A DNA stretch of 64,000 nucleotides from a virus, in the IMG/VR virus record IMGVR_UViG_3300030333_002322; one strand, written 5' to 3'. Position 1 is the stretch's first letter. Each line of letters opens with the position of its first letter. The position numbers and the translations under genes were made by a program. The notes beneath the pieces were generated by a model. That model did not search any database and had not been told where the DNA came from. It saw only the letters and a list, made by a program, of their open reading frames with translations. Of this stretch, positions 6,023 through 49,857 are shown piece by piece.

Positions 6023-6972
6023 TTTTCTCTTATCTCATTTGCTAATTCTAAATGCCAATCTGCCCCAGGGTGCATGCCATCTCTTGCATGTGGTTTTTTA
6101 AAGTCCTTCCATGGTTCACCCTGTGTTAATCTAGCATATACTTGCTCCATATTCCTATCTGCTTCCCAATGATATGGATTTGGTTTACATATAACCTTAT
6201 CAGTATATGTTATAGAGTTGTACAATGGAGAGTCTGGATGTATGTTCTCTCTAACTGTACTATTGTGATCTATCCAATATAATTGAATATCGTATGATCT
6301 ACAAATATTTTTTATGTTTTCAATGGCAATAGCATTTGACCATTTGTCTGCTTCTATCTCTCTTCGACCATCTAGGAAGTGTCCATATGCTGGATTAGTG
6401 TCTAATGCTTTTACCCATGGTCCTAAGTTTCTAACAATATTACTCTCACTCTTTAAAGAGTAATTGTATGTGGTTATTGGTAATGATACTATAACAAATT
6501 CTGGTTTAGGATACTGTCTTAAAAATGCACCTAAGTTATATGCTATAATAGTTGTATCAATACCTGCCAATGCCATATTGTACATTGGAGTCTTTCTAAA
6601 CTTTCTCCACCACAGGTCATTGAAAAACATACCTGAACCTTCTGTAATAGAACTTCCTGTAACTAAACCATATGGTCTAAAGGAAGGTGGATAATCATCT
6701 AAATTCTTCCACATCAATTCATGATTTCTAAAACCTAATTCATCATATTGATATGATAATGTAACGTCTGAATTGTAATAGTACCAATCTTCTCCTATTA
6801 CTTCTTTTATCTTTTCAAACCAGGCTTCACTTTCAATGTTCTGCCATTTAAATGGTTTGTCCATTTCTACATTTCTGCTTATCAGACCGTTTTCATGTAA
6901 CTTTAGTAAATCGTTTGGGTGACGTCTCCACGCTACCTTCGATTCTTCATTCATGCCCATACCTCTTGCCAT
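6007..6972 (-). CDS. SGNH/GDSL-like hypothetical protein (paralog 2)
   Basis: DELGFR...TGSSITEG...NMALAG...ARDGMHPG, the same motif order as 4587..5507. Confidence 0.55.
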   Translation of the reverse strand: MARGMGMNEESKVAWRRHPNDLLKLHENGLISRNVEMDKPFKWQNIESEAWFEKIKEVIGEDWYYYNSDVTLSYQYDELGFRNHELMWKNLDDYPPSFRPYGLVTGSSITEGSGMFFNDLWWRKFRKTPMYNMALAGIDTTIIAYNLGAFLRQYPKPEFVIVSLPITTYNYSLKSESNIVRNLGPWVKALDTNPAYGHFLDGRREIEADKWSNAIAIENIKNICRSYDIQLYWIDHNSTVRENIHPDSPLYNSITYTDKVICKPNPYHWEADRNMEQVYARLTQGEPWKDFKKPHARDGMHPGADWHLELANEIREKWLIE

Positions 6973-19600: not shown

Positions 19601-19868
19601 CTAATAAATAAACCTTTTTCCAATCTTCGTAGCCATCTAGTTTAGCTTCGATTTTGTCTATTCTTTTTGCTAACATTGGATAGTCTGCTCTCCATTTAGC
19701 TTCTTTCTTGGCAAGTTCTATATTATATCTGTTTGCCAAAAACTCCATTAAACTATTTACTTTTCTTTGGAACCAACCACCAACCTTTGTATTAAGAAAC
19801 CACTTACTAAATGCGTTTCCAAATACTGCCGTTACACATGCTATGGCCAATCTAGTTAATATTAACAT
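19593..19868 (-). CDS. Small membrane-associated protein
   Basis: Hydrophobic N-terminus; adjacent to the spanin pair. Confidence 0.5.
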   Translation of the reverse strand: MLILTRLAIACVTAVFGNAFSKWFLNTKVGGWFQRKVNSLMEFLANRYNIELAKKEAKWRADYPMLAKRIDKIEAKLDGYEDWKKVYLLDE

Positions 19869-20485
19869 TGTTCTGTTAAGAATGTTTTAAAATCTAACAT
19901 TCCCCTTTCCTCTTTTTGCAAGTTCATTCCTTGCCTTGTTGCTTTATATAATTTCCTGGCATGTTCATCACTATGATTTGCATGGAGTCCTGCCTTAAAT
20001 GATTTATAATCATTAGAACTAGCATGAGCTCTCATCTTTGTTCCACTTATACCTGCTACACCCTCAGCATCAGGATCTCTCTGTCCTGCTGATAATATAT
20101 GTATTTTTTTATAATTATATTCTTTTCCATTATACTTTTTAGCAAGAGCTTTAAACTGTTTTACTCTATCACTACCTACAACCATTGTTGCGTGTGTATG
20201 TCCTTCTTGATTAAACTTTTTAAGTTGTGCTAAAAAATGTGGGTGTTCTTTTGTAGAATGTTCAAAGTTAACTTCAGGATGAATATGTCTTAAATATTCT
20301 TTCTTATGTTCATGATGTAAAGGATCTGTTTTATTATTCTGTGAATGACTAACAATAACTGCGTGATTAGCACCTATTTTTTGTGCATGTGAATGAACTT
20401 TATCCACAACCTTACTATGTCCAGCAGTAGGTGGATTCATTCTTCCGTATGAAAATACTATATGTTTTTCTTGTTCGTCTGCCAT
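19862..20485 (-). CDS. HIGH-family nucleotidyltransferase (phage cytidyltransferase), His-rich
   Basis: FSYGRMNPPTAGH, VVGSDR and ISGTKMR motifs. Confidence 0.8.
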   Translation of the reverse strand: MADEQEKHIVFSYGRMNPPTAGHSKVVDKVHSHAQKIGANHAVIVSHSQNNKTDPLHHEHKKEYLRHIHPEVNFEHSTKEHPHFLAQLKKFNQEGHTHATMVVGSDRVKQFKALAKKYNGKEYNYKKIHILSAGQRDPDAEGVAGISGTKMRAHASSNDYKSFKAGLHANHSDEHARKLYKATRQGMNLQKEERGMLDFKTFLTEQC

Positions 20486-20489
20486 TTAA

Positions 20490-20540
20490 TTATCCGCAAC
20501 AAGTGCAAGAACAGCATTCACAACATTTACATTTACTCAT
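20490..20540 (-). CDS. 16-aa Cys-rich micropeptide MSKCKCCECCSCTCCG
   Basis: AGGAG SD 6 nt upstream; the ATGA start overlaps the upstream stop; fills the intergenic gap exactly; 8 of 16 residues are Cys. Confidence 0.7.
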   Translation of the reverse strand: MSKCKCCECCSCTCCG

Positions 20541-21715
20541 GTCTTTCTCCTCGCGTCGTTTTTATTAAAGTTAAGAGCACTAAACTCTTTCCTATCTACA
20601 AATTTAGAAGGTCTGCCATTTCGTATTGCTACAAAACCTTCTGGTTTAACTTTTTGTCCGTCTACTTCATGTCCCCATTGTGATTTCTGAGACATTGTTT
20701 TAGTAAGGATATCCTTTGCTGCTTGAAGGTGTCTGTGCATGTGCATAGGTCCTTCAAAGTGTTCCTTATTCTTATTTATATGTCCTACGGTGTCATCATG
20801 TGTTTTTTGATGCCTAGCTTTTGCTGCTGGTGTAGATACTCCGTCTATTTTCTTTTGTAGTCTGGTACTTACATGTTTAGCAAAACCTTCATGAGAATAC
20901 TGTTCGCCTGTTCTAACCGTGTGGTTAATATATGTCTTCTTAGCGTCTGCATGTTTTAGAACAGTATCGTGGTGCTCATCTGGTGTATTTTTAAAATGTG
21001 CTACTGCTTGTTTTAGATGATGATCTACCTTAGCCCTATCCTCTAAAGAGTATCTATGAGTACTCATATCGTGATTGGCTGACATCATATGTACGTCTTT
21101 ATGCTTTTTAAAGTTGTTATGATCTATAGCACCATGAGTTGCTTTTAAAGTATCTATTGTCTTACCTTCGTACTTTGTATGTACTGCTAATCCTAATTGT
21201 GCATTAGCAGCTGCCTTGCCGTGTTCTGAATCATGTGGTGCGTGATATGTAATCAACTGTGGTGTAAACTCTACTCTATTACCTTTCTTTTTAACATCTC
21301 CAGGACCGTGCATAATGTCTGCTTGATATACACCATCAGGCTCTATTTTATGTGCGTGATCTAATGCTGCTTTTAATTTGGATACAAGTCCAGGAGCATG
21401 GCCATGATTAGCATCTATGTCTTCGTGTGTATGATTAATCTTAGGATTTTTATTAAATGCTGATTTTGATGCTACAAAAAACTTGCCATTCTCTGGGTGT
21501 TTCCCAAATACAACAGCAGGACTACCATCATATTTTATTGTGGTATCTGTTTGTCCTTGTCCTTTACCTTGTAAATGATTATGAACATCATTTATAGTAT
21601 GAAACGCATGTCCAAAACCTTCTTTACCAGCATGCAGAACATGATCTTCCACATGCTCAAGATGTTTGAGCTTGTCTTCTTCTGCCTGTTCTCTTAAAAA
21701 TTCTCTGAACTTCAT
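20537..21715 (-). CDS. DUF6267-like protein with ligase-type nucleotidyltransferase motifs, His-rich
   Basis: KHLEHVED, TIKYDGSPAVVFG (KxDG), PEGFV, KFVDRKEFS; N-terminal MKFREFLRE. Confidence 0.65.
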   Translation of the reverse strand: MKFREFLREQAEEDKLKHLEHVEDHVLHAGKEGFGHAFHTINDVHNHLQGKGQGQTDTTIKYDGSPAVVFGKHPENGKFFVASKSAFNKNPKINHTHEDIDANHGHAPGLVSKLKAALDHAHKIEPDGVYQADIMHGPGDVKKKGNRVEFTPQLITYHAPHDSEHGKAAANAQLGLAVHTKYEGKTIDTLKATHGAIDHNNFKKHKDVHMMSANHDMSTHRYSLEDRAKVDHHLKQAVAHFKNTPDEHHDTVLKHADAKKTYINHTVRTGEQYSHEGFAKHVSTRLQKKIDGVSTPAAKARHQKTHDDTVGHINKNKEHFEGPMHMHRHLQAAKDILTKTMSQKSQWGHEVDGQKVKPEGFVAIRNGRPSKFVDRKEFSALNFNKNDARRKT

Positions 21716-21720
21716 ATCCG

Positions 21721-21728
21721 TATTTATA
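21721..21728 (-). promoter_or_regulatory. T4 late promoter, probably leaderless
   Basis: TATAAATA lies 5 nt upstream of ATG 21715. Confidence 0.7.
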
Positions 21729-36066: not shown

Positions 36067-37326
36067 CTAAAATTTTACATCAAAGGTTTTGTTAAAATCT
36101 GTGCCTCTTCTTATATCATGTTCTTTTACAAAGTTCCAAAAATCTTTTCTATGTTTTTCTAGTTCTTCACCTTCGAATCTATTTGCCTTTATCCACTCTA
36201 CAGACTTCTGAAATTTTACAACCTCTCCTTCTGTAAACTGAGGATAGGTTTTCATTGATTTTAATCCTTCTTCCATAATACTTATATGAGTATCGTCGGC
36301 AATTTGTGCTGAGAGGTGTTTTGGATCTACCATATAAGGCATGTCTATTGTTAGATGAGGAAAGGTTTGTTTCATCTCTGCCATTTTAAAAATGAATTCT
36401 TGTATATTGAATATAGATAAGAAATTAAATGTACACATGATACCTACTTCTATTCCATTAGCTAATATTCTAAGTAGGTTTTCTTCAAATTGATCTACTT
36501 TTAATCCATGTCTAATATACTCTGCTTGTTTCCCCCATGAATCTATACTGGCATATATTCTAGTATTAGGTATATCTTTTGCTTGGTTAATATATTTTTG
36601 TACTCTTTCTTTCGTAACCATAAGATTAGAATTACAATGGAATGTCAATCCTTCTCTAGGATTTGCCTTAACATATTTTAGAAGTTTATATGTATTCTTA
36701 TCTAATAAAGGCTCTCCTCCTGTTACTCTAAGAACAAATAAATGTTCATATGCCTGTGGAAACCATTTCCAAAACTTATCTACATAGGGAGAGTTTTCTA
36801 TTTGAGGATTATCTATAACATTATAGTCCTCAGATAGTTTATAAGGACCATGCTCTTGTATTTCTTTTTCCCATGAAGTACTAAACACAGGACCACAATA
36901 ACTACATGACATTTGACATTTATTTGTGAAAGATATTTCTAAATATTTAGGATACACATAATCTAGTCCTGCGTCTGTTGCTTCTTTGACTATATGTCTA
37001 TTATGTTTAAAAAATTGAGCTGCAAGTGTTTGCCTATCTGATATCTCACCAAGATCCTCTACTTCCCAACAATAAGAGCACTCTGAAGGTCTGCTACCTT
37101 GCAACATCTCTGCTCTTTTTTCTATTTTTTGAGGTGTGTTATGTAAGTCAGAGTCTAAAGGAATTTTCTGTGTAGGACAATGATAACAGGAATGACTTTG
37201 CCCTGTTCCTAAGTGCATTTCTAAATGATACCATTTTAGTACACAGAAACCAGGCCCTACTTTATCCTGTTCGTCTTTGATAAGTTGGAGGGCTTCTATT
37301 TGATTTTTATTTAGCTTTCTTTCCAA
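36067..37326 (-). CDS. Radical SAM protein with an N-terminal Cys-rich (twitch-like) region
   Basis: CQMSCSYC, TGGEPLL and an N-terminal C...CYHC...CSYCW. Confidence 0.85.
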   Translation of the reverse strand: MERKLNKNQIEALQLIKDEQDKVGPGFCVLKWYHLEMHLGTGQSHSCYHCPTQKIPLDSDLHNTPQKIEKRAEMLQGSRPSECSYCWEVEDLGEISDRQTLAAQFFKHNRHIVKEATDAGLDYVYPKYLEISFTNKCQMSCSYCGPVFSTSWEKEIQEHGPYKLSEDYNVIDNPQIENSPYVDKFWKWFPQAYEHLFVLRVTGGEPLLDKNTYKLLKYVKANPREGLTFHCNSNLMVTKERVQKYINQAKDIPNTRIYASIDSWGKQAEYIRHGLKVDQFEENLLRILANGIEVGIMCTFNFLSIFNIQEFIFKMAEMKQTFPHLTIDMPYMVDPKHLSAQIADDTHISIMEEGLKSMKTYPQFTEGEVVKFQKSVEWIKANRFEGEELEKHRKDFWNFVKEHDIRRGTDFNKTFDVKF

Positions 37327-41664: not shown

Positions 41665-42729
41665 TTATAAAAGGTAACTTTCCATGTCATCTGGTAAGTC
41701 CTCAAACTCTAATAATCCTAACCCTTCATATCCTGGTCTAACTTCATCAGTCAACAATCCTATTCTTTTAATATTAGGAATGACTCTTTTTAAGAGATGC
41801 TTTCTCACAATTTTATATTGCTTACCTATTTCGTCTTCTTCAAATTGGCATGCGTAATCATGTGCATCCTGTGGATCAAATCCAAACTGTTTATAAAACC
41901 CTGGTCCAAAACCAATTCTATTAAGTAATGTTGTGCAACATTCTAAAGCATACCCTGCTCTATAATTTATCTCATCTTCAGTTAGAGTCTTGAGATAATC
42001 ACCTAAATAATTAATACCAAAAGTTATATGCCTTGCTTCATCTTGTAATATGTAATCCATTATCTGTGCTAAGAGAGGGTCATTGGTATTGTTTCTACAT
42101 ATTTGAAATGTACTTACTGCTAATCCTTCCACCACTATCTGTACAATAATAAACTTTAAATCCCACTCTTTAGATGATAATGCAATATCAAATATGTTTT
42201 TTACACCTTCTCCAATAGGGTAGACACAACCATATCTTTCTGCAATATATCTGCTCATAGTTTCTGCATGTCTTGCTTCGTCAGCAGCTTGTTGTGCTGC
42301 AAATAATTTTGCTTGGTATGTTGGTGCACAGCTTACAAGTTGACCACAACATATTGCACCCATTTGTTCTCCATGCAAGATAGATGATAACTGCCACAGG
42401 TTTTTATGTTTTTGAAATTCTCTCTTATCTTCATCAGAAAGCTCTCTATATGGTCTATAATTAAACCAAAAAGGATCGTCTCCCTCAGGCCATTGTCCTA
42501 ATACAACAATGTCTCCTGGATGTTCTGTATCCCACTCAATATCCTTACTAGGATTCCAGGCTCTCTCCTTACCCAACTCATATATTTTTCTAATACGAGT
42601 ATCCTCATTTCTATAATCCCAATTATAAAAAGAGTCCAAAGGTGTACTAAAAGATTCTGCTAAATCTGAATCGTTCTGAGATGGAAACTCCTGAAAACTA
42701 TCAGGAGTATTGACTTGGGTTATTTTCAT
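41665..42729 (-). CDS. Ferritin-like di-iron oxygenase (AurF-like)
   Basis: LHGE, DEARH, VEG and a second DEARH di-iron pattern. Confidence 0.75.
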   Translation of the reverse strand: MKITQVNTPDSFQEFPSQNDSDLAESFSTPLDSFYNWDYRNEDTRIRKIYELGKERAWNPSKDIEWDTEHPGDIVVLGQWPEGDDPFWFNYRPYRELSDEDKREFQKHKNLWQLSSILHGEQMGAICCGQLVSCAPTYQAKLFAAQQAADEARHAETMSRYIAERYGCVYPIGEGVKNIFDIALSSKEWDLKFIIVQIVVEGLAVSTFQICRNNTNDPLLAQIMDYILQDEARHITFGINYLGDYLKTLTEDEINYRAGYALECCTTLLNRIGFGPGFYKQFGFDPQDAHDYACQFEEDEIGKQYKIVRKHLLKRVIPNIKRIGLLTDEVRPGYEGLGLLEFEDLPDDMESYLL

Positions 42730-46852: not shown

Positions 46853-48301
46853 TCAAAGACTTAGGAGTCTGGACTTATAAAAATCGAATTTTTCTTGTTC
46901 TCGACCCACTATTTCTGAGTCCAAAACGTCATTTGGATACCCTAGGGACGTTTTTTTGAACTGTTCTGCAGTAAACCCTAAGTTCTGGAACCTATTAAAG
47001 AAGGTCCAGGCACCACGTTTTAAGGGTTCTCCTTTGGCGAAATCTAACTGTAATTCTTGTGCCAATCCTACACAATCTTGCCTTGTAATACCATCATCTC
47101 TTGTCCAACCACCCTGTCCGTCTAACTCATATCCATATTGTCCAGGGTTCTTAGCCATTAGACTACCATCATGTGGGTGTATGTATAGTGGGTGATAAGA
47201 AACTACATCTACGGGGCAGTCTGGCTGCTTTAACCACTCATTATTAGCTCGTAATGTATCAGGTGTATCATGTGGTAACCCTACAATTAGTCCTGTAAGT
47301 ATAATCATGTCAGGACATTCCTCTCGTAATCTCATCAACCCATCTTTAAGTTTTTCACCTGGCATACCTTTACCTATTGCTTTACCTGATAATGTATTAA
47401 AGGATTCAACACCAAAAAAGACACTTCTAAGACCACTTTCATATAATTGTTTTGCTGTCTCCCAATGAGATACTATTAGATCTAATCTAGCAAAACTACT
47501 GAACTCAATATTGAAATCCATTTTCATAAATTCCTCATGGAACCTTGCTACTTTTTCTGGACTATCATTATAGGTATCATCACAGAACATAAACCCTGTA
47601 CTTCCAAATCTATTCTTTGCATCTTCTATTTCTTTTCTAACTAATTCAGGAACTCTATTAAACTCCCATATCTTTTTACCATTAAGATCATAACTACAAT
47701 AGCTACATTTAAATATGCAACCCCTAGCAATTTCTATTGGTAAATGTTCGTTAGGAAATATTAAATCATCATCGTCCCATAATATAGAACAGGTTGAAAA
47801 TCTTTCAAACCCTAAGTTCAATGTTCTTTTTGATGGTCTTTTTTCTTCTATTTCTTTTGTAATTTGTAGGACACTTTCCTCACCTTGTCCTTGTATAATA
47901 ATATCAAATGTTTTATCATCAGGTCTTATATGTCCTACCTTTGTGCCTCCTGCTACAATCTTACAATCAGGATTAATTGATCTTATTTCATCTACTAATT
48001 CTGCCCAATCATCTCTTCCTGTAACAGTCATTTGTGCAGTAAAAACATTCGTTCTGTTTTTACCTGTTTGGAGCATGCGTTCATACTCTAAAAATGTAGT
48101 ACTAAGTCCAACCCATAATGTATTCTTACCAACAAATTTTTTAATTATGTTTATAAGTTCTTCTGTTGACCACTTAGTAAAATATTCTATAACCTGTACT
48201 TTATATCCATGAGCTCTTAGTTCAGATGCAATACGATATGTCCCAGCATATCTTCCAAAACCGGGGCTACATACATCTGTGAATAGAATTATATCAGGCA
48301 T
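46853..48301 (-). CDS. Cobalamin-binding (class B) radical SAM enzyme
   Basis: N-terminal B12-binding-like Rossmann (VGLSTTF, KIVAGG, GQGEE), then EIARGCIFKCSYC, FCDDTYN, FFGVES and IVGLP. Confidence 0.85.
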   Translation of the reverse strand: MPDIILFTDVCSPGFGRYAGTYRIASELRAHGYKVQVIEYFTKWSTEELINIIKKFVGKNTLWVGLSTTFLEYERMLQTGKNRTNVFTAQMTVTGRDDWAELVDEIRSINPDCKIVAGGTKVGHIRPDDKTFDIIIQGQGEESVLQITKEIEEKRPSKRTLNLGFERFSTCSILWDDDDLIFPNEHLPIEIARGCIFKCSYCSYDLNGKKIWEFNRVPELVRKEIEDAKNRFGSTGFMFCDDTYNDSPEKVARFHEEFMKMDFNIEFSSFARLDLIVSHWETAKQLYESGLRSVFFGVESFNTLSGKAIGKGMPGEKLKDGLMRLREECPDMIILTGLIVGLPHDTPDTLRANNEWLKQPDCPVDVVSYHPLYIHPHDGSLMAKNPGQYGYELDGQGGWTRDDGITRQDCVGLAQELQLDFAKGEPLKRGAWTFFNRFQNLGFTAEQFKKTSLGYPNDVLDSEIVGREQEKFDFYKSRLLSL

Positions 48302-48309
48302 CTCATCAG

Positions 48310-48317
48310 TATTTATA
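48310..48317 (-). promoter_or_regulatory. T4 late promoter
   Basis: TATAAATA lies 8 nt upstream of ATG 48301. Confidence 0.6.
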
Positions 48318-49857
48318 TACTGACGTCGAGACTAAGAGTTAGCTCTCTACCACCTGCGCTATACCCTGGTAAAATTTCAAAGTGTCTGTTCATAATATCT
48401 TTGATCTGTAAACCTAAACGATATTTCCTATCGAAATAATATCCTAAATTAAAATTAAATGTTGACATATCATCTATAGGTCTGCCATCAAACTCTAATC
48501 CTTTATCGTATGCTCCTACATATTCAATCATATAATCAAAGTCACCCCAACCATTATAGTAAGATATCTTTGTTTGATATTTAGGAACCCTAAGTTTGTC
48601 TGTGTCTGTGTATTGTGCCAATACATACCAACTTCCGTTCTCAGTTATTATATGATTAGCATACTTAATACCTGTAGATGTGTACTCTCCAGAGTTTATA
48701 TATTGATATTGCATAAAATCAAAATCAATACCCTCATCAAATTCATATCTCCATGCAGTAAATTTTCTATAACTTATTTCAGCACCTTTACCTTCTTCAG
48801 GTTTTAAACTAGGGTTTGCACCCACCCAGTCATCCCCAAATCGTTCATATAAATTAGGAGATCTAAAACTGTTACCTAAGGAAAACTTAATACCTTTTAA
48901 ATCTAATCCAAATCTAAATATGTTTGTTGACTCTTCACGACGATAACCAACTCCAAAATGTGTATTTTGCCAATTCACATATACTGCTGGTCTCTCATCT
49001 TCTAGATCATTATATTTTTCTTTCTGATATGTTGCACCCAATAAAAAGTCACCTATACTTTCCTTAGCGTCAATGTAATATCTATCATTATCTGCTTGCC
49101 AAGTTTTATCTCCTGCACTAAGATGTTCAGTATCATTTCTACTGTAACCTAGTGTTAACCAATCATTTCGTATTGATGATGTTAACTTTGTGCCATTTTG
49201 TTTACATTCATCTGTATTACTCCAGTCAACAGCATAACAATTATCATACTCATATTCATAATCTGTAACTGTAGAAAGAAACTGAAATCCTTGCCACTCC
49301 ATTTTAGATCTTAATGTTGTATTTTTAAACCAATCGTCTTCACTATTGTCTGTCATTACAGAACCGCTAGTACCATGGTATCTTGATACAAGTAAATGCT
49401 TATTACCAAACATCACATAGCTTTGGTCTTCACCACCTTTACTATATAATACGTCTTGCCAATATTCATCTTCTATCAATACTGTTCCTGCCATACTTGA
49501 ACTTCCAAATAATACAGAGTTAGGTCCTGATATTACTTTATAAGATTGATATGAAGGAATGTCTACACCAAAGTCATACCAACCAGAGCCAGGATCGTTT
49601 ACAGGAATTCCATTTCTAAAAACTGCTGTATTTTTTACGTCAGTTCCATTTAATGTTGCTCCAATAAAACCACCCCTACCTCCAGGTGCATATATTTTAA
49701 TGGGTTCTATTGCTTCTATTGCTAGGTTATCTGTTTCAGGATCTGAAAACCCGTTTTTGATTGTTGATCCAACAATTACGATTTCTTCTATATCACTTTG
49801 TTGCGCATAGACAGACGTGGCCAAAAAGGCCACGACTAATACTACCAAATTTTTCAT
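48313..49857 (-). CDS. TonB-dependent outer-membrane receptor, BtuB-like
   Basis: Signal peptide, TonB box EEIVIVGS, plug (NGIPVND...VISGPNSVLFGSSSMAGTVLI), FRSPNLYE...NPSLKPEEG, and C-terminal GYSAGGRELTLSLDVSI. Confidence 0.85.
   Translation of the reverse strand: MKNLVVLVVAFLATSVYAQQSDIEEIVIVGSTIKNGFSDPETDNLAIEAIEPIKIYAPGGRGGFIGATLNGTDVKNTAVFRNGIPVNDPGSGWYDFGVDIPSYQSYKVISGPNSVLFGSSSMAGTVLIEDEYWQDVLYSKGGEDQSYVMFGNKHLLVSRYHGTSGSVMTDNSEDDWFKNTTLRSKMEWQGFQFLSTVTDYEYEYDNCYAVDWSNTDECKQNGTKLTSSIRNDWLTLGYSRNDTEHLSAGDKTWQADNDRYYIDAKESIGDFLLGATYQKEKYNDLEDERPAVYVNWQNTHFGVGYRREESTNIFRFGLDLKGIKFSLGNSFRSPNLYERFGDDWVGANPSLKPEEGKGAEISYRKFTAWRYEFDEGIDFDFMQYQYINSGEYTSTGIKYANHIITENGSWYVLAQYTDTDKLRVPKYQTKISYYNGWGDFDYMIEYVGAYDKGLEFDGRPIDDMSTFNFNLGYYFDRKYRLGLQIKDIMNRHFEILPGYSAGGRELTLSLDVSI

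Follow-up and report, generated by a model that had tools for sequence, protein, structure and literature searches.

What is the role of a 16-residue open reading frame with eight cysteines that fills the narrow gap between two genes of a virus? The window, i.e. the whole stretch of 64,000 nucleotides that was analysed, is gene-dense and minus-strand, with about 35% G+C, and its distant relatives are T4-like marine myoviruses, e.g. the pelagiphage HTVC008M and the Kyanoviridae cyanophages.

Position and signals of the micro-gene

The micro-gene is located on the minus strand at 20490-20540. It consists of an ATG at 20540-20538, 15 further sense codons and a TAA stop at 20492-20490, and translation of this strand gives MSKCKCCECCSCTCCG, 16 amino acids with eight cysteines, including three CC pairs. 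A Shine-Dalgarno sequence, GAGGAG (20547-20552, minus strand), is separated from the ATG by the 6-nt spacer AAAGAC. The upstream gene codes for a DUF6267 protein of 392 amino acids (20537-21715, minus strand; Pfam E-value 3.5e-93), and the ATG of the micro-gene shares bases with the TGA stop of this gene (20539-20537), forming an ATGA overlap. Downstream, four nucleotides, TTAA, lie between the micro-gene stop and the ATG (20485) of a gene for a cytidylyltransferase-like nucleotidyltransferase of 207 amino acids (CTP_transf_like; 19862-20485, minus strand), whose own Shine-Dalgarno sequence is not clear. An earlier note on this DNA had described the 16-residue ORF, its eight cysteines, its Shine-Dalgarno sequence, the ATGA overlap and the filling of the gap, and all these details are correct; the strand (minus) was left unstated there.

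The peptide contains a 12-codon core, C-K-C-C-x-C-C-x-C-x-C-C, at 20496-20531 (minus strand). This cysteine skeleton occurs once in the 64-kb window, even when two mismatches are allowed, and in none of 100 dinucleotide-preserving shuffles. Because the skeleton is unique in the window and absent from the shuffles, the micro-ORF is real, far beyond what would be obtained by chance.

A T4 late-promoter-like sequence, TATAAATA, is present in 13 copies in the window, all 13 on the coding (minus) strand, and the total is not above chance (11.2 expected). One copy, at 21721-21728 (minus strand), ends 5 nt ahead of the DUF6267 ATG, so that DUF6267, the micro-ORF and the cytidylyltransferase gene would form a late unit. 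The DUF6267 protein also has a KYDG motif, reminiscent of the KxDG motif in nucleotidyl-transferring ligases. The two proteins flanking the micro-ORF are the most histidine-rich in the window, 10.1% (cytidylyltransferase-like) and 11.0% (DUF6267) compared with 2.6% for all ORFs of at least 100 amino acids. The idea that histidine-rich neighbours are tied to the micro-ORF was dropped: DUF6267 homologues contain 7-12% histidine with or without the micro-ORF, and in other lineages the neighbours of the micro-ORF are not histidine-rich.

Conservation between DUF6267 and the cytidylyltransferase gene

Related loci were fetched via the flanking proteins, by homology to DUF6267 or to the cytidylyltransferase, and the presence of the micro-ORF was no selection criterion. 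The samples comprise 80 IMG/VR loci with a DUF6267 homologue and 44 loci found via the cytidylyltransferase. Among the former, the micro-ORF lies directly behind the DUF6267 stop in L004, L005 and L006, and in several other loci it is found one gene further, after an inserted NfuA-like gene. L003, with a DUF6267 protein 99% identical to that of the window, has no micro-ORF, and the start of its cytidylyltransferase overlaps the end of DUF6267. Among the latter, the Cys8 micro-ORF is immediately upstream of the cytidylyltransferase in 14 of the 44 loci.

The two samples contain eight distinct DNA sequences of the core. Both TGT and TGC occur at six of the eight Cys positions, and at the homologous place in these loci we found no replaced Cys, no non-synonymous Cys change and no decayed copy. 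The length variants at the junction, of 15, 16 and 17 amino acids, differ in whole codons. A conserved frame with synonymous variation of the Cys codons in this gap was what the earlier note had proposed to look for, and this is what the relatives contain. The pattern indicates that the peptide is under purifying selection on all eight Cys in this frame, and the scatter of presence and absence indicates that the micro-gene as a whole is often gained and lost.

Public marine metagenome reads contain at least three forms of the junction, with the micro-ORF present, with the micro-ORF replaced, and with an insertion. In one variant the micro-ORF segment, 20486-20561, is replaced by 17 bases; another carries a 781-base insertion between DUF6267 and the micro-ORF, which is probably the NfuA-like gene, judging from related loci. 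Contigs from RNA libraries span the micro-ORF region as well, and such contigs are no proof of transcription.

The slot can also be occupied by other small ORFs. In three of the 44 cytidylyltransferase loci it holds a different micro-ORF with six cysteines, MCKCESCKCDPCTCSN, which has an AGGAGG site and a CxC pattern and is located after a 66-aa ORF and upstream of the cytidylyltransferase gene (L019-L021, 4372-4422, plus strand; also L465-L467). The presence of this Cys6 ORF in the same slot suggests that thiol richness, and not one exact sequence, is selected. A basic small ORF is found there in four of the 44 loci, and most of the remainder have no ORF in this place. A very basic ORF of about 36 amino acids, starting MSKGQNRDRGNKNKKKP, lies just after the DUF6267 stop in L016 and L017 and is also present in L468 and L470-L472; it runs into the cytidylyltransferase start.

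The Cys8 family and its gene neighbours

Further members were searched for with a degenerate DNA pattern for the 12-codon core, with the three spacer positions free and Lys at position 2 fixed. The scan of IMG/VR gave 66 loci: 53 tiny stand-alone ORFs, and (TGC)n-like repeats in the remainder. Genuine copies of the core are also found in bacterial and archaeal genomes, and a metagenome scan adds at least about 24 copies. When pooled, the family has at least 104 loci, in marine phages and a few marine bacteria, which represent 69 different DNA sequences and 55 different peptides; the peptides have 13-26 residues (13-17 in phages).

The family can be written as M-x(0-5)-C-[K, rarely N]-C-C-x-C-C-x-C-x-C-C, followed by a tail of 0-2 residues, up to eight in Porticoccaceae. 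The ATG is 0-5 codons ahead of the core in all members but one, the minimal peptide is MCKCCKCCSCTCC, and the window peptide has the same sequence as the commonest member (7 loci). Cysteine makes up 50-62% of the peptides, with CC and CxC motifs. The residues at the three spacers of the 69 distinct members are K/E/S/D/R/P, N/S/T/K/D/E and similar, and T/E/D/S/K/A; there is one hydrophobic residue (Ile), no aromatic residue and no stop, and a spacer is never Cys. The near-invariance of Lys at position 2 is partly an artefact, since the search pattern fixed it and CNCC variants exist. When the Lys codon was left out of the pattern, (TGC)n-type repeats dominated the output, with one extra member (CNCC) among the matches listed.

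The abundance of such repeats raises the question whether the micro-ORF is a functional gene at all, or whether it arose by chance in low-complexity, TG-rich DNA or is an element of RNA or DNA. The sequence is TGY-rich, and many of the loose-pattern database matches are repeats of this type. However, the true members have no Cys at the spacers, an ATG close before the core, a stop mostly 0-2 codons after it and Shine-Dalgarno sites, with an SD-like 4-mer ahead of 54 of the 69 distinct members and TAA as the usual stop, and their Cys codons vary synonymously only. At the RNA level, the stability of the fold at 20470-20570 is not above that of shuffles (z = +0.55; window sequence only), and Rfam has no match in the window or upstream of the bacterial copies. 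We therefore consider it extremely improbable that the micro-ORF is not a gene.

The pattern is absent from HTVC008M and P-SSM2. Among 50,697 GenBank phage records, no relevant match to the region or to a 21-aa member was obtained by BLASTN or TBLASTN, and here the low-complexity filter probably hides the family. The 21-aa and 25-aa members have no match in Pfam or NCBIfam at E-values up to 10, metallothionein families included, and the longer members (21-25 aa) are absent from a collection of 15 billion proteins, in line with the claim of the earlier note that gene callers miss this ORF. In the literature we found no paper with the motif or with a phage metallothionein of such a kind. The family is new to the literature: it is metallothionein-like, far shorter than the known examples, phage-borne and without sequence relationship to them.

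Three further observations were made among these loci. An antisense Cys-rich stretch in L013 and L014 falls within another gene and was regarded as a chance occurrence. In L330 and L414 a variant, MNNINNCKCCPCCSCKCCN, is followed just after the micro-ORF by a sequence resembling the 5' end of a tmRNA, which ARAGORN did not confirm. L434 has another variant, followed by a convergent tRNA-Arg at 6194-6266.

The family occurs in about 30 combinations of neighbours, packed between genes on the same strand; the median gap is 8 nt to the preceding gene and 7 nt to the following one. This diversity indicates that the micro-gene is independent of any one neighbour. The cytidylyltransferase-like gene is a direct neighbour in 17 of the 54 phage loci, either before or after the micro-gene, and in about half of all loci DUF6267 and the cytidylyltransferase gene are found as a pair no more than about 2.5 kb away. 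As the pair is nearby even where DUF6267 is 28-32% identical to that of the window, the micro-gene is an old resident of this region. Other phage neighbours include a PD-(D/E)XK nuclease, PhoH, DUF3721 and many genes without assigned function; for most of the neighbour families Pfam and PHROGs gave nothing informative.

Two of the phage neighbours are related to Fe-S assembly. An NfuA-like gene (Fe-S_biosyn and NifU domains) adjoins the micro-gene in two gene orders, DUF6267-NfuA-micro-gene-cytidylyltransferase and DUF6267-micro-gene-NfuA-cytidylyltransferase, in all cases in one phage lineage. In L091 an IscU-like gene (NifU_N, E-value 1e-37) directly follows, with the stop of the micro-ORF inside the Shine-Dalgarno sequence of IscU, and an IscU-like gene is found within 4-10 kb in L108, L136 and L141. 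Neither NfuA nor IscU is encoded in the window, where genes for two radical SAM enzymes lie at 36067-37218 and, with a B12-binding domain, at 46853-48301 (minus strand), together with those for an AurF-like di-iron oxygenase (41665-42729) and a ribonucleotide reductase. Beside the B12-binding radical SAM gene is a 514-aa ORF (48313-49857, minus strand) with a TonB-dependent receptor plug domain (E-value 4.5e-6).

The adjacent NfuA and IscU genes, and the two radical SAM enzymes of the window, would fit a peptide that, together with proteins of the NfuA or IscU type, is a minimal carrier of iron, sulfide or Fe-S clusters, or a minimal scaffold for them, serving the Fe-S enzymes of the phage and not acting as a general soft-metal sponge. 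We consider such an accessory role unlikely. Fe-S assembly genes are missing from the surroundings of the micro-gene in the window and in most of the roughly 30 neighbour combinations, the NfuA cases share their single lineage, and the bacterial copies described below are found by MerC or HMA genes or alone, not by isc or suf genes. Adjacent CC pairs, moreover, are typical of metallothionein clusters and not of the known ligand motifs for Fe-S clusters.

The radical SAM enzymes could alternatively be maturases, with the micropeptide as a ribosomal precursor whose cysteines they modify or cross-link. Cys-rich precursors such as SCIFF exist, and the window has the two radical SAM genes, one of them B12-binding. 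The SCIFF/ranthipeptide precursors have six cysteines in about 45 residues and a radical SAM maturase gene adjacent. The Cys8 family shares with them a ribosomal Cys-rich peptide in a genome with radical SAM enzymes, but it has a third of the length and no leader: apart from one member, the N-terminal extension comprises 0-5 residues, which leaves nothing for recognition by a maturase. The radical SAM genes of the window are 15.5 and 26 kb away, relatives of them are present in only six of the 104 family loci and adjacent in none, and many members have no enzyme gene alongside. A precursor role is thus very improbable.

Among bacteria, three of 266 genomes of the SAR86 order carry the micro-gene, which is thus rare there, although the incomplete genomes limit the meaning of this count. 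The three copies sit in a common island that also has a cupin gene. One of the SAR86 genomes is complete; in it the micro-gene is directly before a MerC-family gene, and nearby are genes for an HMA-domain protein, a weakly MerT-like protein, a plastocyanin-like copper protein and an alternative oxidase. In a second SAR86 genome MerC is 2.2 kb downstream, and a glyoxalase II-like gene adjoins the micro-gene. Taken together, the informative neighbours in phages and bacteria (MerC, HMA, MerT-like, NfuA, IscU) point to thiophilic-metal, Fe-S or thiol chemistry.

Four genomes of Porticoccaceae/Cellvibrionales carry a 22-26-aa form, e.g. MVNLKCKCCDCCTCTCCSKQISQAL. In Porticoccaceae a strong intrinsic terminator begins about 22-25 nt past the micro-gene stop; its stem is kept via a compensatory change and the sequence beyond it diverges. 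In one of these genomes (L169) the gene that follows is convergent. A stretch of about 100 nt ahead of the micro-gene is highly conserved in the four genomes (L169, about 2190-2296; L162, L176, L182) and may be a promoter/operator or a regulatory RNA without a match in Rfam. The copies in L154 (Oligoflexia) and L417 also end at a terminator. With terminators of their own, the Porticoccaceae, L154 and L417 copies are monocistronic small genes and not leaders of another gene.

This organisation bears on the possibility that the micro-ORF is a cysteine-sensing upstream ORF, in which scarce Cys-tRNA would slow ribosomes on the eight Cys codons and thereby alter the translation of the coupled downstream gene. 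The 4-nt distance to a cytidylyltransferase-like gene with no clear Shine-Dalgarno sequence agrees with it, as does the use of the same slot by two unrelated Cys-rich micro-ORFs in sister phages. There is also a precedent, the polycysteine sORFs that regulate mycobacterial operons (Canestrari et al., bioRxiv 10.1101/834739); these attenuators are the first ORF of a leaderless transcript ahead of cysteine-metabolism operons, and they work via an RNA duplex over the next ribosome-binding site. Like them, the micro-ORF is an unannotated short ORF with consecutive Cys codons upstream of other genes. Unlike them, it has a Shine-Dalgarno sequence and is located mid-operon in phages (in the window behind DUF6267) or is monocistronic (Porticoccaceae). 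In the window sequence, the one that was folded, no RNA structure that would sequester the next start was detected (z = +0.55). Its downstream genes are many and unrelated (cytidylyltransferase, PD-(D/E)XK nuclease, DUF3721, IscU and others), and none is for cysteine metabolism. In several lineages the micro-ORF is behind the cytidylyltransferase gene and not ahead of it, and the Porticoccaceae, L154 and L417 copies stand alone with a terminator of their own, the next gene in L169 being convergent. Finally, the exact Cys spacing and the polar spacers are kept from phage to bacteria, which a stalling tract would not need. We find cysteine sensing quite unlikely as the function of the family. 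Since the window ORF is part of a translationally coupled chain of genes, it may still have a regulatory side effect on the downstream gene.

The micropeptide as a proposed metal binder

The reading that we prefer is that the product of the micro-gene is a miniature metallothionein-like thiolate metal binder, to which we assign a probability of about 0.5 on the basis of its composition and gene neighbourhood. Metal-thiolate clusters are usually built from CC and CxC motifs. The peptide has the features by which metallothioneins are operationally recognised, i.e. a low mass, a very high Cys content (8 in 16 residues; 8 in 13-26 in the family), motifs of the CC/CxC/CxxC type and few or no aromatic residues.

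According to this proposal, the peptide would act alone in the cytoplasm, and the selected property would be the cysteine skeleton with its polar or charged spacers. As a single molecule or a small oligomer, it would wrap thiophilic ions, Cu(I), Zn(II), Cd(II), Hg(II) and possibly Fe, and in the infected cell it would serve to buffer these metals or sequester them. The phage could plausibly benefit in that its metal- and Fe-S-dependent enzymes would be protected or supplied; the radical SAM enzymes, the ribonucleotide reductase and the di-iron oxygenase encoded in the window offer a possible rationale. The step that could unify these observations is a cytosolic thiolate sponge that would shield exposed [4Fe-4S] clusters from soft metals, above all from Cu(I), which damages the [4Fe-4S] clusters of radical SAM enzymes (PMC9576991). 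Translation, metal binding, the identity of the metal and the benefit to the phage are all parts of the proposal that we infer.

Several points count against the metallothionein-like reading. The 21-aa and 25-aa members lack similarity to the metallothionein families, and the micro-gene is rare in the SAR86 order. Most neighbours have no assigned function, so the metal-related contexts are a minority, and they come partly from one phage lineage; the window has neither of the Fe-S assembly genes. A free peptide of 13-16 residues, finally, may be short-lived in cells, and the coupling to the downstream gene leaves room for the regulatory side effect named above.

The closest comparison in size is with the fungal Cu-thioneins, of which the shortest is the 26-residue metallothionein of Neurospora crassa (PMC4755600). 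The micropeptides resemble these in being very small and Cys-rich, with CC and CxC motifs, polar spacers and no aromatic residues, and a metal-thiolate cluster is expected. They differ from the Neurospora crassa protein in having about half its length (13-17 aa in phages) and a higher Cys fraction (50-62%), and in being phage-borne; their metal binding is predicted. The bacterial metallothioneins SmtA/BmtA and MymT are cytosolic Cys-rich metal buffers of about 53-56 amino acids. Here the likeness is a prokaryotic, Cys-rich peptide, with a SAR86 copy of the micro-gene among metal-handling genes, but these proteins are three to four times longer, are folded with His ligands (SmtA) and have no sequence similarity to the micropeptide.

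Phytochelatins, (gamma-Glu-Cys)n-Gly, are made enzymatically from glutathione and are not gene-encoded. They are short and thiol-rich like the micropeptides, for which chelation is predicted, and some family members end in Gly; the micropeptides, in contrast, are gene-encoded, and the terminal Gly is not conserved. The earlier note had likened the peptide to a minimal metallothionein or a phytochelatin mimic. The first comparison holds for composition, while the second is a loose analogy because phytochelatins are made without ribosomes. It had also proposed either a metal chelator or donor or a precursor peptide for the radical SAM enzymes; the chelator or donor is the better supported of the two, by composition and by the NfuA, IscU, MerC and HMA neighbours, and the distance, the lack of adjacent enzymes and the near absence of a leader speak against the precursor.

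A broader proposal, which we regard as tentative and rather doubtful, is that no gene-encoded metal-thiolate peptides smaller than these, with 13-17 residues and 8 Cys, are known, and that they are encoded by a widespread accessory gene of abundant ocean phages that is also present in SAR86 and SAR92. They would shield Fe-S and radical SAM enzymes from thiophilic metals, or act as a minimal Fe-S or metal carrier with the NfuA and IscU of the phage.

The family clearly illustrates how a conserved group of genes can escape gene callers. A peptide of 13-16 residues is cheap to make, so the hypothesis is directly testable. Should the peptide prove to bind metal, it would be roughly half the size of the smallest metallothionein-type molecule known so far, and trace-metal handling would join the functions that ocean phages bring to their hosts, a matter of importance in waters where Fe, Zn, Cu and Cd influence the growth of microbes.
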